Assembly (NCBI GenBank): GCA_964385615.1
Contig: CAYLPP010000003.1
Location: 11,288-75,287, forward strand
Source: an uncultured bacterium
Lineage (GTDB): Bacteria; Omnitrophota; Omnitrophia; Omnitrophales; Aquincolibacteriaceae
Direction of reading: 5' to 3'
Length of the DNA stretch: 64,000 nt
Shown here piece after piece: positions 18,530-64,000 of this stretch (its first letter is position 1; each line of letters opens with the position of its first letter). Under the pieces are notes generated by a model, which searched no databases, had not been told where the DNA came from, and was given only the letters and a program-made list of their open reading frames with translations. Both the position numbers and the translations under genes were made by a program.

Positions 18530-19072
18530 CTAGGAACGCACTACATGTGGCCCAACTTCTTTTGGATCATTTGGGTCGTTAATCCGGACTAACTTGCTAT
18601 TCTCATCGAGCATTGTTCGGAATAGAGCTAACTGTCTGGGTTCATCGCCCAAACGGACAACTTCTAATAGACGCCGCAAATGGAAATGCTTTACGATTTC
18701 TACTTCCTGGCTTTCTTTGAGAAAGCTTTGAATAGACTCGGGCAATTCTAACGTCTTTAGGACACGGGCTATATACGACCAGTCTTCACCTGTTATTTCA
18801 GATAATCCCCTGACACTCTTAACACCAGCGGACTGCTGGAGATTGCGGTAAAATTCAGCTTTTTTGAGGGGGAAATTTTCAAGTCGCTTGAGATAGGTCT
18901 GATGTTTTTCCCAGACTCTTTGATTAACAGCTTCCACCGACTCAAGATCTTTGGGGCGTTCCCCGAAAACAAACTGTTGCCGCCGATGTTGGTATTTGCT
19001 ATAAAAAGGCTGTGAGTATTGGAAGATACGCGACTCAAACTGTTGCGTCGCGGGGATCTTCGATGGCCCCAT
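18530..19072 (-). CDS. ParB-like HTH domain protein, copy A of a multi-copy family (3' part of the 506-aa ORF)
   Basis: It shares the WEKHQTYLKRLENFPLKKA and GVKSVRGLSEITGEDWSYIARVLKTLELPESIQSFL blocks with the ORFs at 40120-40815 and 58635-59168. A candidate internal start GGGGAACAAATGGGGCC (ATG at 19072) lies inside the proximal tandem repeat. Confidence 0.55.
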   Translation of the reverse strand: MGPSKIPATQQFESRIFQYSQPFYSKYQHRRQQFVFGERPKDLESVEAVNQRVWEKHQTYLKRLENFPLKKAEFYRNLQQSAGVKSVRGLSEITGEDWSYIARVLKTLELPESIQSFLKESQEVEIVKHFHLRRLLEVVRLGDEPRQLALFRTMLDENSKLVRINDPNDPKEVGPHVVRS

Positions 19073-19156
19073 TTGTTCCCCAGCTGCGAAACTGTGGGAT
19101 TTAAATTGTTGCGTAACAGGGAACTTCGCTGACCCCAATTGTTCCTCTGCTGCGAA
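19037..19156. repeat. two tandem 66-bp repeats upstream/inside copy A
   Basis: Units 19037-19090 and 19103-19156 (...TTGTTGCG..GGGAAC..CCCCA(A/T)TTGTTCC..CTGCGAA). They encode the peptide repeats AAEEQLGSAKFPVTQQFKSHSF and AAGEQMGPSKIPATQQFESRIF. Confidence 0.8.
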
Positions 19157-19159
19157 TCC

Positions 19160-20050
19160 ACAGCCTTCAGTTCCACAAGCTTTTTCGGCTTGAGAAGCGA
19201 CGGAGGCTGAATGGATCTTCGCAGCAGAGGGAACATCCTTGTTCAACGCAACCTCTCCAGATTTATAGGCTTTCGCAGTCGCTTCATTGCAAGCATCGGC
19301 CAATTCAGCCAAAGCGGTATTCCACACTTCGGCATTTTGACCGGCATTAAAAGGGCGTCCAAACAGCCCTATATCCAGCCGCCCAATCCCCTTTTTCTTA
19401 TCAATAATATGACACACAACATAGCTTATGAATCTCGGCAAAAGCATTTTAATTTTATCGGGCTTCCCCTTATACAACCGACAAAAATCCCCGAATAATT
19501 GTAGCGTTTGAATTTGGTCATGCGCGGCACCCGCCTGAGCCCGCTCGGCATTAATTTCCATAGCTATACGCTGCTCCTGTTCAGACAAATCCTTTTCTTC
19601 AATATTTAGAGATTCCAGTTTGTCTTTAACAGAACCCAACTGCGAAATTCCTTTTTCCGCCAATATGTCTACCAGATTAGATACCTGCGTTCTAACATCT
19701 TTGAGTTTTATTTTTACCCGTTCCCAATCTGTCTGTAATTCGTTGATTCTTCCTGCCGTTGACTGATTCGCCGACTGAACCGCATTAGTAATCATTTTGG
19801 AATCGAATTGCAAATTATGAATGAACTCAATAACGGCTCGATCAATTGCCTCAGCGGGCAAATAAATTAATTCGCAATCAATCCCACGTGTTTTATCTGC
19901 CTTCATACATGCATAATAGCGATGAATGTTGCTCCAAGGAAATACCCAAGAATATCCTGGCGGAACACATGAGCAATCCATTCGCCGGAATAAGAAGCTA
20001 ACCCATGATTGAAAATTGTGGCAACAAAAATTCCCGCCATAATGGACCAT
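19160..20050 (-). pseudogene. 5'-truncated large serine recombinase (zinc-ribbon and coiled-coil C-terminal region only), fused in frame to copy A
   Basis: RMDCSCVPPGYSW...RYYACMKADKTRGIDCELIYLPAEAIDRAVIEFI matches the Cx2C...YYxC...C zinc ribbon followed by the I.AE.L..AV helix of large serine recombinases. There is no resolvase catalytic domain upstream, and the frame runs into the UPF0016 gene. Confidence 0.5.
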
Positions 20051-20154
20051 GGCTTTTTAAAGCGTGCGGCCAAAGAAAAGGCTAGAAGCTGGGTTTTATC
20101 TCCCATTTCACTTAAGGCAACGAGAATGAAGGAACTTGCAATGACTTGAATCAT
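19903..20154 (-). CDS. UPF0016 (GDT1/TMEM165) single-repeat membrane protein, possibly truncated
   Basis: EMGDKTQL signature. Only 83 aa, and its 3' 148 nt overlaps the recombinase-remnant frame. Confidence 0.5.
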   Translation of the reverse strand: MIQVIASSFILVALSEMGDKTQLLAFSLAARFKKPWSIMAGIFVATIFNHGLASYSGEWIAHVFRQDILGYFLGATFIAIMHV

Positions 20155-20208
20155 TTAGACTCTTTTTTAAGGTCGAGTCCAAGAAATAATCATACGGCGG
20201 TGATAGTT

Positions 20209-31681: not shown

Positions 31682-33016
31682 TCAATTTTGCCGAGGGGAT
31701 TTACCGGATTTCAAATCCGCAACTCTTTTTTTGGCTTCCTCATGGCACCGCTCATACTCTTCCGCATCAATAGTTCTAAATAAGGGAGCCGAAACGTGGA
31801 AGAACCAGCAAGCGGCAGCGGCCAGCCAAAAGAGAGCTGAAACAGCTAAAAACGAAAAGTAAAAAGATGGGAAAAAAACTGAAACGACTCTGAGGACAAG
31901 CGTCGCACCCAGGGCAACCGCAATGGCGCTAAGCGGCCAGGCGTTTTTCTTTAAAGCAGACGACATTCCTCCATGGCTAAAGATCACCATAATCGAAACT
32001 GCAAAGGTCATGAGCGCATAGCCTCCGATAAAAATGACATGCAGCATGGCCGTACGGAAAGAAGGAAAAAACGCAAGCAGCCAATGGCCTAAAAAAACCA
32101 TCCAAAAAGAGGCCCAAAGCAACCGCACAAAAGGATCTTGAACAAGAGGTTTGGGATTGATCGTCCGCGTTGGAATATAAATCGCGCTTACAATAAATGC
32201 CCGCAAGAAGTAAGCTAATTTTGAAAAATCTAATCCTTCTAAAATAAAGCTAAAAAGCAATAGCCCGCCAAGAAACAAATAAGTGAAGACTTTTTTGACG
32301 CGAATGCGCTTCTGGTCCTTTTGATCTCCTACGATAAACTCCGGCTTATAAACACCCATGAGCCTGGGACCAAGGAACGCTCCTACTCCGAGCACGAGTG
32401 ACAAAAGAAACCCCTGGTCCATAAATAATTTTCCTATTTTCAAAAATACGGGCGTCGAAATTACTTTGTGAGTCTCGCGCAAAACCATAAGGGTTCCCGC
32501 AATACCCTGCGCGAGAGCAATCGGAATCCAAATAAACTCAACTGGCGGTTGAACAGAATGGTCTTTTCTCTTAAATCTTTTGAAAGCAAAAATTGCGAGA
32601 GAAATCATCCAGCCCAAAAAACACAATCTCCCCAGCGTCCAATGATTCGAGAGATAAAAAATAGGAATTAAGCCTATCCAGACCAAAAAAATTAAAAGCT
32701 CCACAGCAGATGCTGGAGGAGCTGAAGCAAAGCGAGGCATTGCAGTCAAAAGAAAACCGAGGACAAAAGAACCCATATAGACTTGAATCTGGATCGAGGC
32801 ATGGAAAAGAGCGGAATAATGCGGAATCCACCCCATTGCATAAAAAAACCAGTGGCTAATCCCGAGGACTCCGCCAAGAACCGCGAGAGGAAAAAAAATC
32901 CGGTAAGGTTCTTCTGCGATCCGTTTAAGAATACCGAAACTTTTATTTTGCAATTTTTTTAAAACCGCCTTGGACAAGATAATGGAGCATGCCTGCAAAA
33001 GTAACCGTCCATACAA
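31682..33016 (-). CDS. nnrS: NnrS family heme-copper membrane protein
   Basis: EEPYRIFFPLAVL...HWFFYA N-terminal signature and 12 TM helices. It is a paralog of 53016-54326. Confidence 0.65.
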   Translation of the reverse strand: MYGRLLLQACSIILSKAVLKKLQNKSFGILKRIAEEPYRIFFPLAVLGGVLGISHWFFYAMGWIPHYSALFHASIQIQVYMGSFVLGFLLTAMPRFASAPPASAVELLIFLVWIGLIPIFYLSNHWTLGRLCFLGWMISLAIFAFKRFKRKDHSVQPPVEFIWIPIALAQGIAGTLMVLRETHKVISTPVFLKIGKLFMDQGFLLSLVLGVGAFLGPRLMGVYKPEFIVGDQKDQKRIRVKKVFTYLFLGGLLLFSFILEGLDFSKLAYFLRAFIVSAIYIPTRTINPKPLVQDPFVRLLWASFWMVFLGHWLLAFFPSFRTAMLHVIFIGGYALMTFAVSIMVIFSHGGMSSALKKNAWPLSAIAVALGATLVLRVVSVFFPSFYFSFLAVSALFWLAAAACWFFHVSAPLFRTIDAEEYERCHEEAKKRVADLKSGKSPRQN

Positions 33017-38652: not shown

Positions 38653-39069
38653 TTAGGCCGCGGCAATATTCAAGCTTTTTTGATGCCGAACATGATGAGA
38701 ATGCGGCGGTAGTTTTTCTTTTAAATCGTCGGTGATTTGACTTTCTATAGCCTGAGCTTCGAAATCCTCGAAGTCTTCATGGAATTTCTTTTTTACACCC
38801 ATCTTCGTTAATTCATAATGGAATGTGGGAGCAAGCCCTTGTTGCTGCAAACACGCCTTAACGCAGGCAAGCGGACAGCCATCAATCCCAATAATGACTT
38901 CAGCGTTTTTTGCTTTTTGCACGAGCGGGGATACGCTGCCTCCCACTCCCGCGATACAGGACATTTCAGCAATTCCTCTGCGGTCCAGTCCAATAGCAAT
39001 GCGATTCGCCATTTGCGCCGCAGAAGAACATCCCGAACAAGAATAGACAAGAACTTTGCTATTTTTCAT
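38653..39069 (-). CDS. DGC domain metal-binding protein
   Basis: CSGCSS and IGIDGCPLAC blocks typical of the DGC domain. The start ATG overlaps the upstream stop as ATGA. Confidence 0.55.
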   Translation of the reverse strand: MKNSKVLVYSCSGCSSAAQMANRIAIGLDRRGIAEMSCIAGVGGSVSPLVQKAKNAEVIIGIDGCPLACVKACLQQQGLAPTFHYELTKMGVKKKFHEDFEDFEAQAIESQITDDLKEKLPPHSHHVRHQKSLNIAAA

Positions 39070-39548
39070 CTGTGATGTGCGCCGCAACAAGTCTCATACC
39101 TCTCCGCCGGTATGGTTTCCATCGCAAGAAAAATCTGTGCGGCTTCCCTTTCTGTAATCAATTGATCGATCGCAGGGTAAAGAACCTGCTCTTCTTTATG
39201 ATTATGGGCCTCTAAGATTTCAACGAGCATTTCTTCATCGTCATCACTAGATGGATCGGCTTTTCTGACCTTTTCATGAATACGGTCGAGCAATGCCCCA
39301 ATGCGGCGGTGTTCTTCACGCATCACAAATGTAGGACCGCCTTGGCTGGTGCCGGACTTTTTTTCAAAAAGAGGAAAGAGAACGTCCTCTTCCCAAACAA
39401 TATGCCGTTTGAGCCCTTTAAAGAAGACCTTAAAATGCTGTTTTGCTTCGGGGAAGGATTCTCTTTTAAGCTCTTGAAAACTTGCGAAGGCCGCATCAAG
39501 ACGATTATGATCTGCTTCAAAATATTGAGTAACGATATTTTTTACCAT
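39066..39548 (-). CDS. hemerythrin HHE cation-binding domain protein (NO-stress-type di-iron protein)
   Basis: H..EE..LFP repeats. It is about 70% identical to 50833-51315 and directly downstream of an Rrf2 gene. Confidence 0.7.
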   Translation of the reverse strand: MVKNIVTQYFEADHNRLDAAFASFQELKRESFPEAKQHFKVFFKGLKRHIVWEEDVLFPLFEKKSGTSQGGPTFVMREEHRRIGALLDRIHEKVRKADPSSDDDEEMLVEILEAHNHKEEQVLYPAIDQLITEREAAQIFLAMETIPAERYETCCGAHHR

Positions 39549-40119: not shown

Positions 40120-40647
40120 TTATATTTTGGATAAGAATCCAAGAGAATCGGCTTTTAAGAGGTGGGACTCCACTAACTCATCAAGCATTGTTCGAAATCG
40201 AGCTAACTGGCTGGATTCATCGCCTAAGCGAACAATTTCTAGTAGCCGCCGCAAATGAAACTGTTTTACGATTTCCGCATTCTGATTTTCTTTGAGAAAG
40301 TTTCGAACAGACTCGGGCAGTTCTAACGTCTTAAGAACACGGGCAATGTAAGACCAATCTTCTCCTGTTAATTCTGATAAGGCTCGGACGCTTTTAACTC
40401 CAGTAGTTTCTCGAAGCTTACGGTAATAGGCAGCTTTCTTTAAGGGGAAGTTTTCTATTCTTTTGAGGTACGTCTGGTGCTTTTCCCAGATCCTCTTGTC
40501 GATAGAGTGAACGTCGGTCAAATCTTCCGGGCGCTCTCCAAAAACTATCTGTTGTCGGCGATTGTTGAAGATGCTATAAAACGCTTGGGAAAATTTAAAA
40601 ACACGGGTCTGCGCCTTATTCACGCAGAGTAACCGCGCGGGCCCCAT
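40120..40647 (-). CDS. ParB-like HTH domain protein, copy B (track ORF extends to 40815)
   Basis: Shared blocks with copies A and C. The candidate start GAGGAACAAATGGGGCCC (ATG at 40647) lies inside the proximal tandem repeat. The longer ORF's N-terminus is encoded by repeats and hairpins. Confidence 0.55.
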   Translation of the reverse strand: MGPARLLCVNKAQTRVFKFSQAFYSIFNNRRQQIVFGERPEDLTDVHSIDKRIWEKHQTYLKRIENFPLKKAAYYRKLRETTGVKSVRALSELTGEDWSYIARVLKTLELPESVRNFLKENQNAEIVKQFHLRRLLEIVRLGDESSQLARFRTMLDELVESHLLKADSLGFLSKI

Positions 40648-40735
40648 TTGTTCCTCGCCTGCGAATACGCGAGATTTTAAGCCACTAGAAATATTCGCGT
40701 GGAGTAACTGCGAGGACCCCATTTGTTCTGACGAA
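40621..40735. repeat. two tandem ~65-bp repeats at the 5' end of copy B
   Basis: Units near 40621-40665 and 40694-40735 share ...GAGTAAC.GCG.GG.CCCCATTTGTTC... with the copy A repeats. Confidence 0.75.
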
Positions 40736-40755
40736 CCGAAGGAGTAAAACTCCAC

Positions 40756-40794
40756 GTTTTTGATACGCACTGCTATAGAGTGCGTATCAAAAAC
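40756..40794. promoter_or_regulatory. 16-bp perfect inverted repeat between copy B and the divergent XRE gene (candidate operator)
   Basis: GTTTTTGATACGCACT-GCTATAG-AGTGCGTATCAAAAAC. Confidence 0.45.
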
Positions 40795-40976
40795 ACGGTT
40801 CGTTGAGGGTAACATGAGGACCCGTCAAAAGGGACTAGAACCATAGTAGCAGCTATCTCCGCTTTTCCTCTCCTTTTAGTTAGTCGCCGACAAGTTCGCA
40901 TAAAGTTTCTTAACCTCCGAGCATACCCATGTGACGTCAGCCGGTCGGAGGAAAAGAACGGATATTTGGACTCATA

Positions 40977-50832: not shown

Positions 50833-51315
50833 CTAATGATGTCCGCCGCAGCAAGTTTGATAGCGCTCCGCAGGTATGTTTTCCATCGCAAGAAACGCTC
50901 CGGCAACCTCTTCTTCGGACAAGAACTTGTCTATAGCAGGATAAAGCACTTGTTCTTCTTTCTGGTTGTGCCCTGCCAAAATTCCAAGAAGTACTTGCTC
51001 ATCCTCTTCGCTTGAGGAATCCGCTCTGCGCACTTTGTCATGAATGCGCTCAAGAGCAGCTCCGATTTGACGATGCTCTTCACGCATCACAAAAGTCGGT
51101 CCGCCGGCCTTCATACCCGACTTTTGTTCAAATGCGGGGAATAAAACATCTTCTTCCCAGATGATATGGCGCTTGAGGCCGTTGTTGAAGCTTTTAAAAT
51201 AAGCTTTAGCTTCGGCCATGGATTCTTTCTTTTTATTCTGGAATTGTTTAAATAATGAATCCAACCTGCTGTGGTCCGCTTCAAAATATTGAGCAATGGT
51301 ATTTACCGTTTTCAT
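50833..51315 (-). CDS. hemerythrin HHE cation-binding domain protein (paralog of 39066-39548)
   Basis: Same length (160 aa) and roughly 70% identical to 39066-39548. H..EE..LFP motifs. Confidence 0.7.
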   Translation of the reverse strand: MKTVNTIAQYFEADHSRLDSLFKQFQNKKKESMAEAKAYFKSFNNGLKRHIIWEEDVLFPAFEQKSGMKAGGPTFVMREEHRQIGAALERIHDKVRRADSSSEEDEQVLLGILAGHNQKEEQVLYPAIDKFLSEEEVAGAFLAMENIPAERYQTCCGGHH

Positions 51316-52309: not shown

Positions 52310-53044
52310 ATGGATCTCATAAACTTAAGTAAGATGAAGTCGAGTGAAGAGCTTAAAAGAGAGCAGCAGGTAACGCTTGAAACTCCCAGAAGGCGTTATG
52401 GACTCCTCGCCCGCCTTCTTTTCCTCTTCATGGATCTTTTCTATGGAAAGAAGCGCACATTTTCAAAATTCAAAGTCCTGGAAGTGATTGCCCGCGTCCC
52501 CTATCAGGCATGGGAACACGTGGCCTATATCGCCATGACGCATACCTATGCAATGCCGGATTTTGCCCGCCGGATTTTTGATTTCCTAAAAGAAGCTCGC
52601 GAACAGCAGGATAATGAGCAATGGCATCTGCTCATTCTCGAAGAATTAACTCAGAAAGAGAACGTGCCGGAGAACTTTTTCCGCTTTAGAATCCTTCCGC
52701 AGTTTATGGCGTTTTTCTATTACCATGTTAGCTGGCTTCTCTATGTCATGAAGCCTTCTTGGAGTTATGGGCTCAATGCTGACTTTGAAGATCACGCCGA
52801 ACACGAGTACATGTTGTTCGTCCAGGAGAACACTGAATTTGAGAATAAACCCTTTACAAGCGACTTTAGAGAAGATTATGGTTTTTACGCGAATCTCGGC
52901 GACCTTTTTCGCCGCATCGGCGTCGATGAACGCATGCATAAGATAGAAAGCTTAGAGAGAGCAACCCATGCCCGATTCTCTCTGCCTCACAATGTCGGCA
53001 AAGAAGAACCAACGGATGGCGGTAAACTTCATGAACGTCCTTAA
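52310..53044 (+). CDS. alternative oxidase-like di-iron carboxylate protein (AOX/PTOX family)
   Basis: Four E / ExxH blocks (LEVIARVP, ILEELTQKE, DFEDHAEHEY, DERMHKIE) resembling the AOX LET.AGVP / LEEA.NE / EEEA.H.Y / DEA.HR motifs. Confidence 0.45.
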   Translation: MDLINLSKMKSSEELKREQQVTLETPRRRYGLLARLLFLFMDLFYGKKRTFSKFKVLEVIARVPYQAWEHVAYIAMTHTYAMPDFARRIFDFLKEAREQQDNEQWHLLILEELTQKENVPENFFRFRILPQFMAFFYYHVSWLLYVMKPSWSYGLNADFEDHAEHEYMLFVQENTEFENKPFTSDFREDYGFYANLGDLFRRIGVDERMHKIESLERATHARFSLPHNVGKEEPTDGGKLHERP

Positions 53045-54326
53045 TATTTCCCGTTGGTTCAAATCGGCAGCCGAAGAACCCTATAGAATTTTCTTTCCTC
53101 TCGGCATCCTGTGGGGAATAGTCGGAATAAGTCATTGGTTCTTTTATGCCCTCAAATGGATTCCCACCTATTCCATGCAGCTTCACTCGGCAATCCAAAT
53201 ATCGGGTTACATGGGTTGTTTCATTGCCGGGTTTCTTTTGACAGCGATGCCCCGGTTTGCTTCAGCGCCGTCCGCTTCTCTGCAAGAATTTTTAACTTTT
53301 TTAGTTTTAGTCAATGCGGCGCCGGTCCTTTACCTACTGCATGAATGGGCCTATGCGCGGTTTTGTTTTGCAACCTGGCTTCTTATGCTCATTTTTTTTG
53401 CCGCCCGTCGATTTCTGAAGGAAAAAAGTGTCGAAATCGAATCGCCGGTCGAGTTCGTATGGATTCCCGCGGCCCTTTTAAATGGCTTATTGGGCGTACT
53501 CTTAATGACAGGAGCCGACGCTCATCTGCTCTCGGGTGCGGCTGGTAAAATAGGAAAACTTTTATCGGAGCAGGGCTTTCTTCTCAGCATTGTTCTTGGT
53601 GTCGGCAGTTTTCTAGGACCGCGGCTCATGGGCACTTTTCGCCCTTCCTTTCAAACCATTCGAGACATAAAAATCCGGAAATCTCAAAGAAGAAATGCTC
53701 TTTACTACCACGCAGCTGCGGCTTTTTGTCTTTTACTGACTTTTTTTCTTGAAGGAACAGGCCGCCTAGGCACCGCTTTCTTTGCGCGCGCATTCATTAT
53801 CGGTTTGATTTATGTTCATTCGCGCACCCTCGTTTTAAAGCCGCCTGCAAAAGATCAATTTGTGAAATTGCTTTGTATTTCGTTTTGGATGATTTTTATC
53901 GGGCATCTCAGCCTCATCTTTTTTCCGGCTTATCGAGCCACTTTGCTGCACGTCACTTTCCTGGGAGGTTATTCTTTAATGACATTTGCCATTGCGACGA
54001 TGGTTATTTTTAGCCATGGCGGACAAATGGCGGATTTAAAACAAGCCATTTGGCAGCTTCCTGCGCTTGGAGCCCTTCTCGCCTTAGCGCTTTGTTTAAG
54101 AATTGCGGCTATTTTCTTTCCGGAATCTTTTTTTACTTTTTTGGGGGCAGCATCTGCATGCTGGCTCTTTGCCGCAGCTTTGTGGCTCATTTTTATATTC
54201 AAACCCATTTTTAAGTTTCCTTCTTCAAAGGAAGAGTTCGAACGCTGCCACGAAGAGGCTAAAGAACGGGTTGCCGCCTTGAGATCCGGGCAGCCGCTCA
54301 ATCAAATAAAACCACAGGAGAGTTAA
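53016..54326 (+). CDS. nnrS: NnrS family protein (second paralog)
   Basis: EEPYRIFFPLGILWGIVGISHWFFYA, TAMPRFASAP and a C-terminal ERCHEEAKERVAALRSGQ block shared with 31682-33016. The start was chosen at an internal ATG; the track ORF starts at 52968. Confidence 0.65.
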   Translation: MAVNFMNVLNISRWFKSAAEEPYRIFFPLGILWGIVGISHWFFYALKWIPTYSMQLHSAIQISGYMGCFIAGFLLTAMPRFASAPSASLQEFLTFLVLVNAAPVLYLLHEWAYARFCFATWLLMLIFFAARRFLKEKSVEIESPVEFVWIPAALLNGLLGVLLMTGADAHLLSGAAGKIGKLLSEQGFLLSIVLGVGSFLGPRLMGTFRPSFQTIRDIKIRKSQRRNALYYHAAAAFCLLLTFFLEGTGRLGTAFFARAFIIGLIYVHSRTLVLKPPAKDQFVKLLCISFWMIFIGHLSLIFFPAYRATLLHVTFLGGYSLMTFAIATMVIFSHGGQMADLKQAIWQLPALGALLALALCLRIAAIFFPESFFTFLGAASACWLFAAALWLIFIFKPIFKFPSSKEEFERCHEEAKERVAALRSGQPLNQIKPQES

Positions 54327-56753: not shown

Positions 56754-58604
56754 ATGAACGCTGTCCCCTCGGAAGAACCCAACATGGAAGGCTTACCCGT
56801 TTCACCAACGTTGAATCCATCACTTCAACGTACAAAGATTACTCCACATTTATCACATCTCAAACCTCGGATCCTGTTGATTTGTCTCTACGCCATTGTC
56901 ATCGGTGCCTTAGCGGCTTTGGCCGCTTATGGATTAACACTTCTCATTTCGCTCATTACTAATCTGTCATTTTATGGGCATTTTTCTACTCGTCCCGTAT
57001 CCCCGGCCGGGCATCCGTTAGGTTTCTTTGTGATTTTTGTTCCGGTCATTGGCGCTCTGATTATCGGGCTCATGGCTCGTTATGGTTCCACGGGCATACG
57101 AGGTCATGGCATTCCGGAAGCTATGGAACGTGTCCTCCTGCATGAAAGCAAAATTCCAATACGTCTTACGTTTCTTAAACCTTTATCCGCCGCTATTTCC
57201 ATAGGAACCGGTGGGCCTTTCGGGGCAGAAGGTCCCATCATAGCAACGGGCGGTGCATTAGGGTCGCTTTGGGGCCAACTCGCCAAAATCACAGATCACG
57301 AACGCCGCACTCTTCTTGCTGCGGGTGCGGCTGCCGGTCTTGCAGCAACTTTCGCGAGTCCGGTAGCTTCCGTCTTGCTGGCGATTGAGCTTCTCTTGTT
57401 TGAATACCGAGCCCGTTCTATTATTCCGGTTGCCTTAGCGGCAATTACCGCACAAGCCGTAAGACTCCTTTATTTTGGCACCGGCCCAGTTTTCCCCATG
57501 GAAAACGTGATCGCTCCAGACGGAACGTCCTTTCTTATCTATGGAGTGATTGGGATTATCATCGGATTTGTTTCTGTTGGTTTAACCAGACTTGTTCACT
57601 CAGTTGAAAACCTGTTTGAAAAAATTCCCATCCATTGGATGTGGCATCCCGCGATTGGCGCGCTCGCTGTAGGACTCGTCGGATACTTTGATCCGCGTGT
57701 TTTTGGTGTCGGTTACCATTACATTGAGCAAACCTTAAACGGTGAGCTTTTAGGGAAAGCTTTACTTGTTTTAGGCCTCGTCAAATTTATTACTTGGACA
57801 ATTTATGTAGGAAGCGGGACTTCCGGAGGGACACTCGCGCCTATGTTTATTATGGGCGGAGCTTTAGGGACAGCTCTGGGTCTGCTTGCAGAAAAGTTTT
57901 TCCCAGGAATTGGCATAGACCATCGCATCGCGGCCTTGGTTGGCATGGCCGGAATTTTCACAGGAGCCTCGCGAGCCTTTTTAGCATCCGTTGTTTTAGC
58001 GCTAGAAACAACCCATCAGCCTTTAGCTTTTATTCCTGTTTTTACAGGATGCGCGGCTTCCTATCTAGTTTCGTGTCTTACGATGTCAACCTCTATCATG
58101 ACCGAGAGCATGACTCGTCGCGGAATTCGTGTGCCCGAAGGTTTTGGGACAGAATCTATGGCCCATGTTCGCGTTAAGGATTACGCGACCTATCCAGCCA
58201 TTGTTCTTAGGCAAGATCAAACGATTGAAGAAACCCGCCCGTGGCTAAACTCGAATAAACCTGAAACGCAGCATCATTTCTATCCACTCGTAGATCACCA
58301 AAATAGAATTGTAGGCTCTATTTCCCGCGCAGAACTCTGGCGTAAGGATATCTCTCTTGACCTGCCGTTAAAAGCCTTGTCCCACAGCGCACCTATCTGC
58401 ATTCGTGAAAGCGATACGCTTCAAGCTGCTATGGATCTCATGGCAAAAAATAAGATTTCACAGTTGTCTGTAGTGGAGAAGAAGAACTCTTCCGTTGTTT
58501 TGGGATTGATTACCTGGAATGATATTTTCAAAGCCTACTCGGCGCAATCTTACAAAGACCATCGCATCAAACGAACCCTTCGAAACCGGACTCATAAGAA
58601 ATAA
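56754..58604 (+). CDS. ClC family chloride channel/antiporter with C-terminal CBS pair
   Basis: GHGIPE and GTGGPFGAEGP selectivity-filter-like blocks, with a CBS region at the C-terminus. Confidence 0.75.
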   Translation: MNAVPSEEPNMEGLPVSPTLNPSLQRTKITPHLSHLKPRILLICLYAIVIGALAALAAYGLTLLISLITNLSFYGHFSTRPVSPAGHPLGFFVIFVPVIGALIIGLMARYGSTGIRGHGIPEAMERVLLHESKIPIRLTFLKPLSAAISIGTGGPFGAEGPIIATGGALGSLWGQLAKITDHERRTLLAAGAAAGLAATFASPVASVLLAIELLLFEYRARSIIPVALAAITAQAVRLLYFGTGPVFPMENVIAPDGTSFLIYGVIGIIIGFVSVGLTRLVHSVENLFEKIPIHWMWHPAIGALAVGLVGYFDPRVFGVGYHYIEQTLNGELLGKALLVLGLVKFITWTIYVGSGTSGGTLAPMFIMGGALGTALGLLAEKFFPGIGIDHRIAALVGMAGIFTGASRAFLASVVLALETTHQPLAFIPVFTGCAASYLVSCLTMSTSIMTESMTRRGIRVPEGFGTESMAHVRVKDYATYPAIVLRQDQTIEETRPWLNSNKPETQHHFYPLVDHQNRIVGSISRAELWRKDISLDLPLKALSHSAPICIRESDTLQAAMDLMAKNKISQLSVVEKKNSSVVLGLITWNDIFKAYSAQSYKDHRIKRTLRNRTHKK

Positions 58605-58619
58605 CCCTTGGTTATTTCT
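58597..58619 (+). terminator. hairpin at the ClC stop codon (weak terminator)
   Basis: AGAAATAACC-CTT-GGTTATTTCT, a 10-bp stem containing the TAA stop, followed by an AT-rich tract but no clean T-run. Confidence 0.3.
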
Positions 58620-58634
58620 TAAAGATTAAATTAA

Positions 58635-59168
58635 TTAAATTTCGGCAAGGGATTTATTCAAATGGCCTTCGAATTCATCAAGCATTGCTCGGAATTGCGC
58701 TAACTGGCTAGGTTCATCCCCCAACCGCACAATTTCTACGAGACGCCTCAAATGGAAATGCTTTACAATTTCTGGCTGCTGGTTATCTTTAAGAAAGCTT
58801 TGAATAGAATCAGGTAATTCCAACGTCTTAAGTACCCGGGCAATAGAAGACCAATCTTCACCTGTAATTTCGGAAAGACCACGAACGCTTTTGATGCCAG
58901 ATGATTCTTGTAGGTCTCGGTAATAAGCAGCCTTTTTCAGGGGGAAGTTTTCGAGCCTTTGTAGATAGGTTTGGTGCTTCTGCCAAACTTTTTGATCGAC
59001 AGTTTCAACATCGCTAAGCTCTTTTGGTCGTTCCCCAAAAATAATCTGCTGGCGGCGATGTTGGTAGATGCTATAGAATGCCTGCGTATACTTAAAAGTA
59101 CGCACCTCGCGTGAATCGTCGAGGGTAAGATAAAGGACCCCATATGTAACCACGAACCCAACCTCCAA
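58635..59168 (-). CDS. ParB-like HTH domain protein, copy C (5' end apparently frameshifted relative to A and B)
   Basis: Shared blocks FKYTQAFYSIYQHRRQQ...LKTLELPDSIQSFLKDNQ...LRRLVEIVRLGDEP. The conserved ATGGGG start element is out of frame here. The predicted Met is encoded by a hairpin. Confidence 0.5.
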   Translation of the reverse strand: MEVGFVVTYGVLYLTLDDSREVRTFKYTQAFYSIYQHRRQQIIFGERPKELSDVETVDQKVWQKHQTYLQRLENFPLKKAAYYRDLQESSGIKSVRGLSEITGEDWSSIARVLKTLELPDSIQSFLKDNQQPEIVKHFHLRRLVEIVRLGDEPSQLAQFRAMLDEFEGHLNKSLAEI

Positions 59169-59243
59169 GGTTGGGTTCTATTGATTAAAGCTGACTCTGA
59201 GTTTAATCAAATTCCCCTTATTCACTCAGAGTAACGGGACGAC

Positions 59244-59278
59244 CTGATGCCGGAACGCGAATACGCTCCCGGCATCAG
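59244..59278. other. 10-bp perfect stem hairpin in the copy C / arsP spacer
   Basis: CTGATGCCGG-15 nt-CCGGCATCAG with no adjacent T-run. Two further hairpins sit at 59158-59174 (CCAACCT-CCA-AGGTTGG) and 59195-59231 (CTCTGAGT-21 nt-ACTCAGAG). Confidence 0.5.
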
Positions 59279-59583
59279 CGTTTCTAAATCATTGACTCCC
59301 CGCTTCCGGCTCCTGACTCTGTCTTCGAGAATCAATAATGATATTGGCAAGGCCCTGGATCAGACTCTGCATGCGTTCTTCATGTAAGTTCGGTGCAGGA
59401 ATTTGAGGGATTTATTTGTAAATCGGGGTATGTTTCAGGCGGACAGCTTTTACTTCAAAGGTCCATTGTTTACGACGTTTTTTTCATTTTTTCTCCTTTA
59501 TCTTTTCTGATCATTTTATTCGCTCTGCAAAATAGCAAATCAATTTAAATCTTACAGCTAAAAATTCCAGGCATGCGGTTTAT

Positions 59584-60525
59584 CTAAAAAAGAAAGTTAA
59601 ACAAATATCCCGTAAAAATAATAGCCAGAGTAGTCACGCCAAAAAAAATAGCGATAAGCGGTAATCGTATCACCCTTCTGAGCATGATGGCTTCGGGTAA
59701 GCTTAGCCCCACAATTGCCATGGTAAACGCAAGGGCAGTTCCAATCGGGACTCCTTTTTGGAATAGAACCACGGCAATTGGCACAATCGCCGCGCAGCTG
59801 CCATACATCGGCACACCAAGAAGGGTTGCGATCGGCACAGAAAAAATTCCGGCCTTATTCAGAATCGATTGAATTGCTTCTTGAGGAATGTAATTATGGA
59901 TAATGGCTCCAACTCCGACTCCAACTAATACCCACACCCAGATTTTATGCACGATCGATTTTGCTTCATTCAAGCCGAATGCTATCCGTTTTAACATGCC
60001 TCCGTGGAAAGACTTTTCACTGGCAAGAGTCCCTTCCGTTAAATCAGTCACAAGGTATTTCTCCAAATGCAAGGCACCCAAAATAGCGCCGATCACCACC
60101 CCGATCAATATGCCGCTCAACACATACGCAGCGGTAATTTCACCCCCAAAAAATCCGAGCATCAAAACGATGAGGTATTCATTAATCAACGGCGATGTAA
60201 TTAGAAATGAGAAAGCAACGCCGAGAGGAATCCCAGCCCGGAGAAAGCTGATAAAAATCGGGATTGAGGAACAAGAACAAAAAGGCGTTACAGCCCCAAA
60301 AATCGAAGCATAGAGGTAACTACTCTTCTTCGAACTGAGCCACCCGCGAAGTTTTTGTTGCGGTATGAAGGTTCTTAAAAAACCAATGGCTGTGATCATT
60401 CCAAAAAGAAGCAGTATGATTTTTATTGAATCATAAATAAAAAAATCAACAACTCCGCCCAATTTGGATTCGGGCGTAAACTTCAATACGGAATAAACCA
60501 GCCAATCGACAATTACTTGCAGCAT
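59584..60525 (-). CDS. arsP: DUF318 permease, ArsP-like organoarsenical efflux permease
   Basis: [10 protein letters not shown] motif with the vicinal Cys pair characteristic of ArsP. Eight to ten TM helices. It sits in the ars operon. Confidence 0.65.
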
Positions 60526-60713
60526 GAGCTCGAATCCGAAGCGCTTTTATCATCTCCGCCACAGCACGGTTTACTTTTAGATTTTTCTTCCATTTTTTTA
60601 TCCAGCTTGTCTATAAGATTTCCAAAGAAACCTTTTTTCTTAGGTTTTTCATCCCGCTTCTCTTTTTCCATAAATCCCCCTTCTAAACTTTCTGTTTGAT
60701 CGTCGAAACCCAC
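60513..60713 (-). CDS. small Lys/Glu-rich protein with two vicinal Cys pairs
   Basis: ...[22 protein letters not shown]-terminus. It lies between arsC and arsP and overlaps both. Confidence 0.4.
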
Positions 60714-61120
60714 TTTTCGATCATTTCATTTATTGCATCACGAACCCGGCGCGTTTTATCTAACTTTTCTTCCCAAGTCCCTTGAAAGGACGACGGATCT
60801 TCAAAGCTCCATTGTAATTTCTGCAAAGCCCCCGGGTAAATCGGGCATCTTTCACTACTTGCCTGATCACAAACAGCTATGACATAGTTGTAAGTCCTGC
60901 CTTGTCTGAAGAGATCAAACGCTCCCTGCGTTTTCTTCCCAGAGATATCAATCCCGATTTCATTCATAGCAGCAACAGCAAGAGGATTTAATACTCCGGG
61001 CTCCAAACCAGCGCTTTGCACATCAAAAGCGTCTCCGCCCAAGCGATTAAGAAGTGCCTCTGCCATCTGACTTCTAGCAGAATTATGCACGCAAACAAAC
61101 AGAACTCTGATTTTATCCAT
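60683..61120 (-). CDS. arsC: arsenate reductase ArsC (LMW-PTP/thioredoxin-coupled type)
   Basis: [14 protein letters not shown]-loop and a downstream Cys in [10 protein letters not shown]. Confidence 0.8.
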
Positions 61121-61565
61121 TCGGAATACTCCTTTCGAGATTAGGCGCGAATCGCCCCGTTTGAGCTACCACTTTAAATTTATCCAAGATCAGGTCGCGA
61201 ACTTTTCTGAATTCGCTCAGCACTTCTTCCGTTATTTCCTTATCGTGCGGCGGATCAGGAAAAGGCCAGTGCAAGCGAGTGGTGCCTCCCGGAAAAATTG
61301 GGCAGGATTCTTTGGCGTTATCACACACCGAAATCACATAGTCGATTTTTTGCCCCGTAAATTCGTCAACGTGCTTGGAGCGATGCCCCGAAATATCGAT
61401 CCCGATTTCTTTCATCACCTTAATGGCCGTTTCATTCACCTTGGAAGGTTTGGTTCCGGCGCTAAAGACTTCAAACTTATCGCCTCCATAATGCCTCAAA
61501 ATTCCCTCAGCCATTTGCGACCTGCATGAGTTTCCAGTGCAAAGAATTAAAACTTTTGTTTTCAT
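61113..61565 (-). CDS. arsC: second LMW-PTP-type arsenate reductase paralog
   Basis: [14 protein letters not shown]-loop and [10 protein letters not shown]. The start is MKTKVLIL at 61565. Confidence 0.75.
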
Positions 61566-61566
61566 A

Positions 61567-62628
61567 TCAGCAGCATCCTTTTGTTTTCTTGATTTCCATA
61601 TTGATGAAATACTTTTTTTGAATCCAAAATGCCACATTCACAAGAGCAATCATGGCCGGCACTTCAACCAGGGGGCCAATCACGGCAGTAAACGCCTGGC
61701 CTGAGTTCACACCAAAAACCGCAATAGCCACAGCAATCGCGAGTTCAAAGTTATTGCTCGCCGCAGTAAATGACAGCGTGACGGATTTACCGTAGTCTGC
61801 ACCTGCTTTTTTCCCCATATAAAAACTAATCCCGAACATTACAACGAAATAAATAAGCAGTGGAATCGCGATCCTGACAACGTCCATCGGAATTTGAACA
61901 ATGTAATTCCCCTTCAAACTAAACATAACAACAATCGTAAGAAGAAGCGCAATGAGCGTTATAGGGCTGATTTTTGAGAGGAATTTATTTTCATACCAAT
62001 CATTGCCTTTTATCTTAACGAGACTAAAGCGTGTAAGCATCCCTGCAAAGAATGGAATCCCGAGATAAATAAAAACGCTTTCCGCAATCTGCCCCATGGA
62101 AACATGAACCGTAAAACTTTCGAATCCAAACAGCCGGGGAAGGAACGTAATAAAGAAGTAAGCATAAATACTGTAAAAGAGAATTTGGAAAATACTGTTA
62201 AAAGCCACTAGGCCCGCGGCGTATTCCGTATCCCCGTCTGCAAGTTTGTTCCATACGATCACCATGGCAATACAGCGCGCCAGCCCGATGAGAATCAAAC
62301 CTGTCATATAGGCCGGGTTGTCTCTCAAAAAAAGTATCGCGAGCCCAAACATTAAAACCGGACCAATAATCCAATTTTGAATCAGGCTCAAGGAAAGGAT
62401 TTTCCAGTCTTTGAAAACATCCCCTAATTCTTCATAGCGCACTTTGGCAAGCGGCGGATACATCATCAGGATCAGTCCGATTGCGATGGGAATATTCGTT
62501 GCGCCAACCTGGAAGGAATTGATTACCTTTTCAACGCCGGGAATGAAGTGGCCTATGGACACGCCTAATGCCATTGCGGTGAATATCCAAAGAGTAAGAT
62601 AACGGTCTAAAAACGATAACTTTTTCAT
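61567..62628 (-). CDS. acr3: ACR3 family arsenite efflux transporter
   Basis: Ten TM helices with the GLARCIAM conserved Cys block. Confidence 0.85.
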
Positions 62629-62677
62629 CGCGGCCCTTTCATATTTGTCTATGCAGATATATTAGAATCAAAAAAAA

Positions 62678-63031
62678 TTATTTACTGCAACAAGCTACGA
62701 GTTTCTTTTTCTTGTGATTCAACGCGGAAAGATCCCGGCATAACTCATCCACCTGCGAAGCACTTCCGCATAAGCCCTGAATAAACGGCCGAAAGATCTT
62801 TGCCCCATGCTCGGATAGCCGGTAATACATCCAGAGTCCTTGCTTCCGCCCCACAACAAGACCCGACTTGCGTAAATAGCTGAAGTGCCGTGATACCTTG
62901 GACTGCGGCTCACCGAGAACTCGCATCACATCGCAAACACACAATTCCCCTTCGCTTAGAAGGTTAAGAATCCTGAGCCGCGTTTCGTCAGAAAAAGCCC
63001 TGAATATGCGTTTTGTATCTTTAAGTTTCAT
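62678..63031 (-). CDS. arsR: ArsR/SmtB family metalloregulator
   Basis: ELCVCDV metal site inside a winged helix-turn-helix. Confidence 0.8.
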   Translation of the reverse strand: MKLKDTKRIFRAFSDETRLRILNLLSEGELCVCDVMRVLGEPQSKVSRHFSYLRKSGLVVGRKQGLWMYYRLSEHGAKIFRPFIQGLCGSASQVDELCRDLSALNHKKKKLVACCSK

Positions 63032-63174
63032 AGCCTAATTGTATTTGCTTAACCACATATAGTCAAGGCTCTCATTCAGAGGCATTTATTTGCTTAGATT
63101 CAATCCATTATCCAGTCCGTCCGTTTGTAGGCAGTTACTCTGATCGAATTTCAGCTAAAATTTCTCTAACCTAA

Positions 63175-63330
63175 AAGAGGCGGAAGCAAAGTCCTTAAAA
63201 TCTTCGCAATATGGGACCAATCCTCACCCGTAAGCTCAGATAGTCCCCTGACGCTTTTTACCCCGGTGGATTACGGAGAAATTTTTCACCACGGAATTAT
63301 TCGCGGGGAGTAACCGCAAGGACCCATCTC
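63175..63330 (-). pseudogene. degenerate fragment (copy D) of the ParB-like repeat family
   Basis: 63196-63250 aligns with copy C 58841-58895 (it encodes ...VKSVRGLSELTGEDWS...). 63285-63320 (CGCGGGGAGTAACCGCAAGGACCC) resembles the 5' tandem-repeat unit. There is no intact ORF. Confidence 0.5.
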
Positions 63331-63411
63331 CTTCTCATAAAAAACCGGCCGCCCGCCGGGGTTAACCCATGCGGACGGCCGGCAATCGCTCCCTGCGGTA
63401 AGTCTGCCTTT

Positions 63412-64000
63412 TTATTGAATCGGGATCGACCTGGCAGCAGGAGCTGTGGCGGGATCGGGTTGAAGCTTGGGCATGGTGATGGTCAGCACACCCTCTTCGT
63501 ATTTTGCGGTAATAGCCTCCGTTTTGACGTTGGCAGGAATCGGCAGCGCCCTCTGAAACGTGCCGTAGCTTCTCTCAAACATCTGCATTCCGTTCGGGTC
63601 TGACGCCTGTTTTTCATATTTTCTTTCTCCTGAGACCGTAAGCGCGTTTTCAGTAATGTTCAGATTGATGCGTTCTTTTTCCATGCCCGGGAGATCAACC
63701 TTGACCACATACTTGTCATTGAGTTCCTGAACATCCATACGGGGAGAAATCATCCCCGCCCCGTTTGTGAATCCCGCGGGACTGGACATCATGCTCCGCT
63801 GAAACATCCGGTGCATCTGCTGCATCATCCGGTCCATTTCCAAAAACGGATTACTCCAGGTGTCTTCCATGCCGAAACCGGCATTCCAGGGATCAGAAGC
63901 GTTCGAAACTTGCGGTGTCTGATTCTGTTTTACGGAAACACTGGAAGTCTGCGCGTGCGCCGCGCTTTCCCCGCTAAGCATCAGAAGAAATGTGAGTGCC
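63412..64000 (-). CDS. Hsp20/alpha-crystallin family protein (5' end beyond window)
   Basis: Alpha-crystallin domain (VKVDLPGMEKERINL..., GVLTITMPK). The frame stays open upstream of the in-window ATG at 63981 and reads like a signal peptide (ALTFLLMLSG). Confidence 0.7.
   Translation of the reverse strand, partial: ALTFLLMLSGESAAHAQTSSVSVKQNQTPQVSNASDPWNAGFGMEDTWSNPFLEMDRMMQQMHRMFQRSMMSSPAGFTNGAGMISPRMDVQELNDKYVVKVDLPGMEKERINLNITENALTVSGERKYEKQASDPNGMQMFERSYGTFQRALPIPANVKTEAITAKYEEGVLTITMPKLQPDPATAPAARSIPIQ

Follow-up and report, generated by a model that had tools for sequence, protein, structure and literature searches.

An arsenic-resistance operon of an Omnitrophota bacterium is probably one unit in a tandem array of decayed serine-recombinase elements

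The DNA considered here, which we refer to as the window, is a 64 kb stretch from an uncultured bacterium of the Omnitrophota (contig CAYLPP010000003.1), and it carries towards its right-hand end an arsenic-resistance (ars) operon (59584-63031, minus strand) that lies between two copies of a repeated gene. This layout had been noticed in a preliminary description of the locus, and it was recovered when we read the region 58000-64000 and listed its open reading frames (ORFs): the copy termed C (58635-59168) and the fragment termed D (63157-63334) are both on the minus strand, in the same orientation, on either side of the operon. Copy C was, however, found 415 bp from the permease gene that ends the operon, and not directly beside it as first described. 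Contigs and homologous proteins from outside the window, with which these features were compared, are given L numbers (L001-L101) and P numbers, respectively.

The block contains genes for ArsR, Acr3 and arsenate reductase, which is the definition of an ars operon, and both ArsR and Acr3 score above curated cut-offs. All its genes are on the minus strand, namely, arsR, encoding an ArsR/SmtB metalloregulator (62678-63031; Pfam HTH_5, 6e-17; NCBIfam HTH_metalloreg, 90.6 bits versus a cut-off of 55); acr3, encoding the arsenite efflux transporter (61567-62628; NCBIfam TIGR00832 acr3, 457.9 bits versus a cut-off of 282.8); a first arsC of the low-molecular-weight phosphatase (thioredoxin) type (61113-61565; Pfam LMWPc, 1e-22), whose best NCBIfam match, arsC_pI258_fam, reaches 142 bits and stays under the equivalog cut-off of 174; a second arsC of the low-molecular-weight phosphatase type (60683-61120; LMWPc, 2.5e-15; arsC_pI258_fam, 111 bits, again under the cut-off); and the gene for an ArsP_1-family permease (59584-60525; Pfam PF03773, 6.7e-60). 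A candidate sigma-70-like promoter of arsR (63038-63066, minus strand; TTGACT-17-TACAAT) was recognised by its match to the consensus at 10 of 12 positions. Between the second arsC and the permease gene there is an ORF of 66 amino acids (60513-60713, minus strand) with a Lys-rich middle and a Cys-rich tail, which is called as a shorter, 52-amino-acid version in Logan contig L101; it had no match in Pfam or NCBIfam, and it may encode a small metal- or arsenic-binding protein of the operon. The G+C content of the unit to which the operon belongs, 43.6% versus 45.4% for the window, is not diagnostic.

The repeated gene is present four times in the window, as the intact copies A (18530-19072, minus strand), B (40120-40647, minus strand) and C, and as fragment D. 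In a whole-window repeat search and in blastn comparisons, the DNA of copy C was 77% identical to 18603-19012 (A) and about 75% identical to 40175-40600 (B), with a range of 75-79% for the family, and the three proteins are 66-71% identical to one another. Pairwise ratios of nonsynonymous to synonymous substitution (dN/dS) of 0.10-0.16 among A, B and C indicate purifying selection, and the dS values of 1.4-2.2 mean that synonymous divergence is saturated. On both grounds, A, B and C are taken to be old, selected genes that were acquired separately, and not recent duplications. Copy C, an ORF of 177 amino acids, is the first gene of a block that continues through a CLC channel and qNOR on to 40.8 kb; its true start is probably the GTG at about 59109 (MRTFKY...), since the orthologue in L014 is called from GTG.

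To what kind of protein the repeat belongs is indicated by profile and structure comparisons. A profile of 47 family members matches the helix-turn-helix (HTH) DNA-binding domain of Noc (E 0.001) and Spo0J, and the top Foldseek matches of an AlphaFold model (mean predicted confidence, pLDDT, 82) are only to the DNA-binding domains of ParB, Noc, KorB and SopB, with a probability of about 1 and an E value of 3.5e-3. The product probably shares a ParB-type HTH domain with these proteins, but unlike them it is 150-180 amino acids long and lacks a recognisable CTPase (ParB/Srx) domain at its N-terminus: Pfam ParBc gave no match, and the model shows only a beta-hairpin before the helical domain. No transposase was found among the Pfam and NCBIfam matches of copies A, B and C, and no partner ParA is present. 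The repeat is, in short, a gene of about 150-180 codons with a probable ParB/Noc-type HTH domain, and not an insertion sequence. The family comprises 247 members of about 150-230 amino acids, none of them annotated; those relatives that could be located in named assemblies are from Omnitrophota metagenome-assembled genomes or uncultured bacteria, and the viral contigs searched hold no relatives. We propose that the protein may act in binding the attachment sites described below, in directionality or in regulation.

Fragment D (63157-63270 for the coding part, minus strand) is a remnant of the same gene, of which it keeps about 115 nt. The preliminary description had taken it to be a true member of the family that retains an internal coding block and a 5' repeat unit, which was borne out: in a blastn search of 63030-63420 against the window, the coding block at 63206-63280 matched copy A (E 2.6e-7) and copy C (E 1.4e-4), and the unit at 63294-63325 matched that of B (E 1e-5). 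Local alignment scores of 53, 49 and 41 against A, B and C correspond to z values of 16, 12.5 and 9.8 over the background of 19 +/- 2 obtained from 300 dinucleotide shuffles, none of which reached them, and tblastn gave 69% identity over 38 amino acids (E 3e-10). The identity of the block to copy C had been put somewhat too high, at about 80%, and was measured at 75% (40/53). Frame 0 of the minus strand reads EMGPCGYSPRI, followed by two stop codons, TGVKSVRGLSELTGEDWSHIAKILRTL and a further stop; this translation, with its stops, the internal loss of about 170 nt and the truncated 3' end identify D as a pseudogene.

Alignment of the junctions at which the copies lie yielded a site of about 65 bp, made up of a left arm, TTCG(C/T)-N3-9-(G/T)(A/T)AC, a core, A(A/T)ATGGGG, and a right arm, NCC-N5-6-TTAC(T/C)C-N3-4-CGAA. 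In reverse complement, the core reads as the ...CCCCA end of tRNA-His. An nhmmer profile of this putative attachment (att) site was built from nine sites outside the window only, including sites beside intact large serine recombinase (LSR) genes and tRNA-His, and across the 64 kb it gave no significant match outside the four junctions, all of them on the minus strand. Junction B holds two full sites (40612-40677, E 1.5e-13; 40686-40750, E 1.7e-13) and junction C one (59108-59173, E 8.5e-13; left arm GGTTCGTGGTTAC, core ATATGGGG, right arm TCCTTTATCTTACCCTCGACGA), at the boundary between the ars unit and the next unit. Junction A has two sites consisting of left arm and core (19058-19102, E 3.7e-6; 19119-19167, E 5.5e-5), and junction D a right arm only (63294-63325, E 2e-6). 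The 5' end of the ParB-like gene overlaps the att site, and in many copies its ATG lies within the core, as in copy B, where it is in frame.

The recombinase itself survives in the window as a 5'-truncated LSR gene at junction A (19127-20050, minus strand), which encodes the C-terminal 300 or so amino acids, including the Zn-ribbon and coiled-coil region; apart from a degenerate remnant at junction B, it is the only LSR copy there. Its full-length homologues P0002 (88-89% identical) and P0003 (71%) have the Resolvase, Recombinase and Zn_ribbon_recom domains (Pfam; P0002-P0019). Genes of this P0002/P0003 type run up to precisely the 3' end of tRNA-His(GTG), to which they are oppositely oriented, and their reading frames continue into translated tRNA. 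In the intact elements the recombinase is preceded by a 67-amino-acid ORF (YPDLxINPxNS...EERLxxxxxGLAAIIIDS), and in L002 the unit between recombinase and tRNA is the same as the unit upstream of the window copies. The recombinase P0017, from L017, is the last gene of an element with TrbI, a VirB11-type ATPase, a relaxase and a coupling protein (a type IV secretion system/relaxase element); at least some intact members of the family are therefore conjugative. Directly after P0017 (L017 11803-14728) we also observed a second, convergent LSR, a MerR/HTH_17 excisionase-like gene and a tyrosine integrase, and several unrelated integrative elements thus appear to be stacked at this one locus.

The two halves of the site are found in different surroundings. 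Left arm and core adjoin tRNA-His in four contigs (L001, L002, L014 and L018); core, right arm and ParB-like gene adjoin unrelated DNA in L018, straight after the terminator of a flanking transporter gene; and internal junctions have both halves together. This is the distribution expected for site-specific integration, with the left half at tRNA-His, the right half at unrelated DNA and both halves at internal positions.

The same organisation accounts for the 400 bp or so between copy C and the ars genes. Three hairpins had been described there as unrelated sequences, a view that does not hold, as 59100-59277 has counterparts in L014 (9501-9678, 89% identical) and in L006 (7384-7740, about 72%). 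Hairpin 1 (59154-59178) partly coincides with the left arm of the C att site, and hairpins 2 and 3 correspond to a conserved hairpin (GATGCCGGGAGCG...CGTTCCGGCATC) and, after it, a partial right arm of an att site (59212-59278, minus strand; 89% to L014, about 72% to L006), with a partial match to the att profile at 59216-59240 (E 0.04). What look like hairpins can be explained by neighbouring att sites, the right arm of one being turned towards the left arm of the following one. A structured RNA or a single-strand site of the integron attC type was considered for the upstream hairpins and rejected, there being no Rfam or attC-like match in 58500-64000.

Further upstream, at 59316-59468 (minus strand), lies a frameshifted remnant of the small ORF that precedes the LSR in intact elements, found by tblastn with the 67-amino-acid ORF of L002 (E 1e-5) and by tblastx against L001, L002, L006, L005 and L014. 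It appears to mark the 3' end of the ars unit, from which the recombinase gene would have been deleted. Junction B is similar in that what remains of the recombinase C-terminus, in degenerate form (tblastn 35% identity, E 1e-8 to 2e-9), is followed by the two complete att sites (40600-40956, minus strand), and remnants of either the recombinase C-terminus or the small ORF precede the ParB-like gene at B, C, L005, L006, L014 and L018. Given the order ParB pseudogene, ars operon, small-ORF remnant and att site, we delimit the ars unit as extending from the D core (about 63326) to the C core (about 59145). By this order D would belong to the ars unit and C would head the next unit, instead of being the second arm of the same element. 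Between its two sites the ars unit holds only arsR, acr3, two arsC, the 66-amino-acid ORF, the ArsP_1 permease gene, the D pseudogene and the small-ORF remnant, and neither integrase nor transfer genes.

At junctions A (18530-20050, minus strand) and B (40120-40815, minus strand), the frame is open across the att sites, so that recombinase remnant and ParB-like gene form one ORF, of 506 amino acids at A. An in-frame fusion of recombinase and ParB-like gene across attP was rejected as a general rule, since the frame is kept at A and B but not kept in L005, and copies of the C/L014 type have the core ATG in another frame than the body of the ParB-like gene. In the A-type copies (window 19058-19072, L005 15016-15050), the first codons of the ParB-like gene, ATGGGGC[CG][AG]TCGAAGATCCCCGCGAC, resemble the reverse complement of the 3' half of tRNA-His with its T-loop deleted, which suggests that the A-type arm derives from a tRNA fragment formerly carried in attP. 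As to tRNA mimicry in general, a T-arm was sought in the att right arm and none was convincing; only the A/L005-type arm resembles the tRNA-His 3' half.

The far side of the ars unit looks like an outer end. The distal junction (63294-63334, minus strand; repeat family D4) consists of the right, ParB-side att half and a truncated core (GAGATGGG/TCCTTGCGGTTACTCCCCGCGAATA), matching nhmmer model positions 36-67 only (E 2e-6), and its recombinase-side half is replaced by flanking DNA. The GC-rich palindrome that had been reported to the right of D does exist, but it is the intrinsic terminator, with its T run (63345-63385, minus strand; terminator scan), of an hsp20 gene (63412-63981; Pfam HSP20) convergent with the array, and thus flanking DNA. 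The layout matches that of L018, where a flanking-gene terminator also comes directly before the core; because the missing left arm is replaced by the hsp20 terminator, as at the L018 outer junction, D is read as the outer, distal end of the array. In addition, Logan contig L100, from an independent assembly (SRR16481187; window 63326-63345 corresponds to L100 2880-2898), carries hsp20 and stops exactly at ...GAGATGGG, ...GAGAAGGAGATGGG, the predicted att core of D. This break could be an assembly-graph branch caused by alternative arrangements, or it could just reflect low coverage; we take it only as a hint, because that assembly is fragmentary and the neighbouring Logan contig is only 1.2 kb long.

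Units of the same architecture recur in other genomes with other cargo. Two ParB-like copies bracket katG-ferritin (dps)-lysR in L005, and a block of TonB-receptor, exbBD and tonB genes in L006; single units adjoin tRNA-His in L014, with ApbE and FMN-binding genes, and in L018, with kdpFABC-kdpDE. The chromosomal neighbours on the tRNA side are syntenic in L001 and L014 (Peptidase_S11, glycoamylase, Cu-oxidase_4), and in L018 Peptidase_S11 can be seen before the end of the locus. The cargo of the other window units comprises genes for molybdenum-cofactor synthesis, a molybdopterin oxidoreductase, a multicopper oxidase, two NnrS, two hemerythrin, an Rrf2 regulator, qNOR and the CLC channel. The anatomy of the units, the split distribution of the att halves and their recurrence in other genomes can all be read from the sequences compared here. 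Within the array, the hemerythrin genes at 39066-39548 and 50833-51315 (minus strand) share stretches of DNA that are 85-86% identical (repeat families D5 and D8; spacing 11764), and the NnrS genes at 31682-33016 and 52968-54326 lie in different units. Nitric oxide (NO)-stress cargo thus seems to be duplicated between neighbouring units.

The tRNA-His loci have further peculiarities. L018 (19500-19790) has, about 270 nt ahead of its intact tRNA-His, 21 nt that repeat the 3' end of this tRNA (TGGGGTGATCGACGGGATTTG) and are joined to GCGCC...GGTCGGCCA, and similar tRNA-fragment-like sequences are found upstream of ParB-like genes in L008 (about 9860) and L009 (about 3500). These fragments suggest a second, different element family, whose crossover would lie within the T-loop of this tRNA. 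Three tandem copies of about 105 nt lie 5' of the L018 tRNA-His (19790-20200), each of them containing the 5' part of tRNA-His and its upstream region (..CAACTGAGCTACGACCACCATAATTTTTATATC..).

Taken together, these observations are probably best explained if the ars block is a unit resembling a cis-mobilizable element (CIME), within an array built by tandem accretion of integrative elements, now decayed, from an LSR family that uses the 3' end of tRNA-His as its attB. An intact element would end with the small ORF and the LSR gene, the 3' end of which runs into the att site, and the other side of att would be the 5' end of the small ParB-type HTH gene. The chromosomal target, as seen in related Omnitrophota, would be the extreme 3' (CCA) end of tRNA-His, and upon integration the recombinase-side arm would come to adjoin the tRNA and the ParB-side arm the DNA that formerly followed it. 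Repeated integration at one locus, followed by loss of recombinase and transfer genes, would leave a head-to-tail array of at least four units, with each internal junction attP-like, that is, unit end, core and the ParB-like gene of the next unit. The ars unit, recombinase-less and 4.2 kb long (about 59145-63330), would be the outermost unit seen, and the D half-site the distal array end. We infer both this order of events and catalysis by the LSR.

Several points weigh against this explanation. There is no tRNA gene in the 64 kb window, so that for this array in particular the attachment to tRNA-His is an extrapolation from other genomes. A search by way of hsp20 orthologues, of which the closest is only 51% identical, gave no syntenic comparator and no empty site. 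The A-B and B-C units are each about 20 kb and include many housekeeping-like genes, such as those for molybdenum-cofactor synthesis, and part of this "cargo" may be chromosomal DNA trapped by rearrangement. Among the 80 closest metagenome Acr3 loci (71-80% identical), none has ParB-like, LSR or small-ORF flanks, a scan that says little beyond "not found", as Acr3 is too widely conserved. Pfam HTH_ParB scores of copies A, B and C are 16.5-19.5 bits, under the gathering score of 22.6. LSR att sites are some 40-60 bp long, with imperfect dyad symmetry about a central crossover; here, arm-to-arm symmetry is significant or nearly so (p 0-0.07) in only about 4 of 11 sites, is clear in L006_1377, for example, with TTCGCAACAGAGGAAC opposite TTCGCACAGAGTAAC, and is absent where the arms are of different subtypes; the assignment of these sequences as LSR att sites is supported by their context rather than by symmetry. 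Finally, canonical LSRs do not recombine attP with hybrid sites, and the site-selectivity of LSRs does not predict arrays.

The preliminary description had offered a composite transposon or a recombination-delimited island, and of these the second survives, in the form of att-type sites. That C and D might be two copies of a mobile element that moved the ars genes by transposition agrees with the same-orientation copies that bracket the operon, and deserves next to no credence: what the repeat encodes is apparently a ParB-type HTH protein and no transposase, D amounts to a pseudogene fragment of 115 nt, its identity to C is 75% over 53 nt without any run of identical bases longer than 8, the synonymous divergence of the intact copies (dS 1.4-2.2) is saturated, and neither terminal inverted repeats of insertion sequences nor target-site duplications were seen. 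The same direct repeats flanking the operon could also have served RecA-dependent recombination, a loop-out between C and D deleting or amplifying the ars block. Efficient RecA recombination generally needs some 20-30 nt of identity; any two copies share at most 18 nt of exact match, and D has only about 115 nt of the gene. Because C and D have no exact match longer than 8 nt, homologous recombination is excluded as the delimiting mechanism, and we regard this scenario as highly improbable.

Two other possibilities have more in their favour. The ParB-like genes could be resident paralogous regulators, host transcription factors that head stress blocks and have the palindromes as their operators, nothing having ever been mobile. 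Such a gene is indeed found 5' of each block, mostly in the orientation of the block; it is under strong purifying selection; KorB-like HTH proteins, to which it is structurally matched, are repressors; and neither a circular form nor an empty site was observed. Yet this leaves unexplained why one half of the site is fused to the LSR 3' end and to tRNA-His in four contigs and the other half goes with the ParB-like gene, and why recombinase or small-ORF remnants precede each copy; moreover, cargo is unrelated between genomes at the same tRNA-His locus, and some of it is on the opposite strand (the CLC channel and qNOR in the window, katG in L005), all of which makes resident regulators quite unlikely. 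Conversely, the array could be a currently active LSR cassette platform, whose units are excised, shuffled and captured in trans with the ParB-HTH protein as a required accessory or directionality factor. Complete and strongly conserved att sites at B and C (E about 1e-13) despite the lost recombinases, ParB-like genes on which selection still acts in units that lack a recombinase, strings of "empty" units of 60-130 bp each, lying between cores, in L002, L006, L018 and window B, and an independent assembly that breaks exactly at the D core all speak for present activity. Against it, no intact LSR is found in the window, only the 5'-truncated copy, D is a half-site with a dead ParB-like gene, the ars unit was not found elsewhere in the 80 closest Acr3 loci, and the assembly break may just reflect low coverage, given the 1.2 kb neighbouring Logan contig; current activity is thus an unlikely reading, if somewhat less so than resident regulators.

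The accretion of decayed elements proposed here has parallels in known systems. Composite islands of the staphylococcal cassette chromosome (SCC), including SCCmec, pseudo-SCC, the arginine catabolic mobile element ACME, and SCC with ars or cad, are LSR-dependent cassettes stacked at one site with short direct repeats between them; many of these cassettes lack recombinase genes, and their cargo consists of resistance or stress genes, as in the present array. Their target, however, is rlmH/orfX and not the tRNA-His 3' end, and SCC cassette heads are without the ParB-HTH gene. Orthology of the recombinase to Ccr was rejected, with NCBIfam scores of 72.7 bits for CcrB and 61.8 for CcrC, each versus a cut-off of 900. 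Integron cassette arrays are likewise one-directional strings of small cargo units, with sites that are imperfectly palindromic (clearly so in only some of ours) and very short "empty" units, but here no IntI tyrosine recombinase is found, none of the sites is an attC, the units have their own promoters, regulators and multigene operons, and nothing points to single-strand recombination; an integron was also rejected because the associated recombinase is of the serine type and no Rfam or attC-like family matched within 58500-64000.

Tandems formed by elements of the integrative-conjugative (ICE) and integrative-mobilizable (IME) kinds and by CIME, for example the ICESt1/ICESt3-related islands of Streptococcus thermophilus, have been described by an accretion-and-decay model (PMC5704250). 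They would share with our array site-specific integration at one site, loss of integration and transfer genes with att sites kept, and a head-to-tail order with attP-like internal junctions and adaptive cargo (PMC5704250); they differ in that theirs are tyrosine integrases, as opposed to an LSR in an Omnitrophota host with a ParB-HTH gene at each att site. Tandem arrays of tRNA-gene islands, as catalogued by Islander/TIGER (PMC4383910), would be alike in being located at a tRNA 3' end, with islands in series and cargo that varies between genomes at the same tRNA. Unlike in those islands, the crossover here is apparently at the very CCA end, and the repeat at the junctions extends to no more than about 10-15 bp of identity, together with protein-binding arms; a crossover at this position would explain why no long displaced tRNA fragment accompanies each unit. 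In 2014, the Islander authors knew only of tyrosine integrases that target tRNA genes (PMC4383910).

The finding thus offers an explanation for an ars operon between odd repeat copies, as one module in a long stack of horizontally acquired adaptive modules, which in the window also comprise nitrate/nitrite/NO-handling genes, molybdenum-cofactor synthesis and a CLC channel. In other genomes of the phylum, modules for catalase, potassium uptake and TonB come in the same architecture, which therefore has the look of a major route of niche adaptation for a lineage without genetic tools. The finding also points to an LSR family with a defined, short and conserved attB at tRNA-His, a class of target that serine integrases, according to the Islander authors in 2014, were not known to use (PMC4383910). 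Pairs of such an integrase and its att site are candidate tools for engineering genomes. It is tempting to speculate, albeit rather doubtfully, that Omnitrophota possess a serine-recombinase platform for cassette accretion at tRNA-His, functionally between SCC islands and integrons, in which small recombinase-less units would be captured, stacked and possibly re-mobilised in trans, each with its att site, its ParB-HTH gene and an operon of adaptive value (ars, katG-dps-oxyR, kdp, TonB uptake, NO detoxification), the ParB-HTH protein being an att-binding accessory or directionality factor. If this were true, it would also clearly exemplify large serine integrases that have specialised, as a family, on a tRNA gene. 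The conserved ParB-HTH gene beside the att site, in turn, represents an unannotated family of 247 members with a putative role in the control of recombination.

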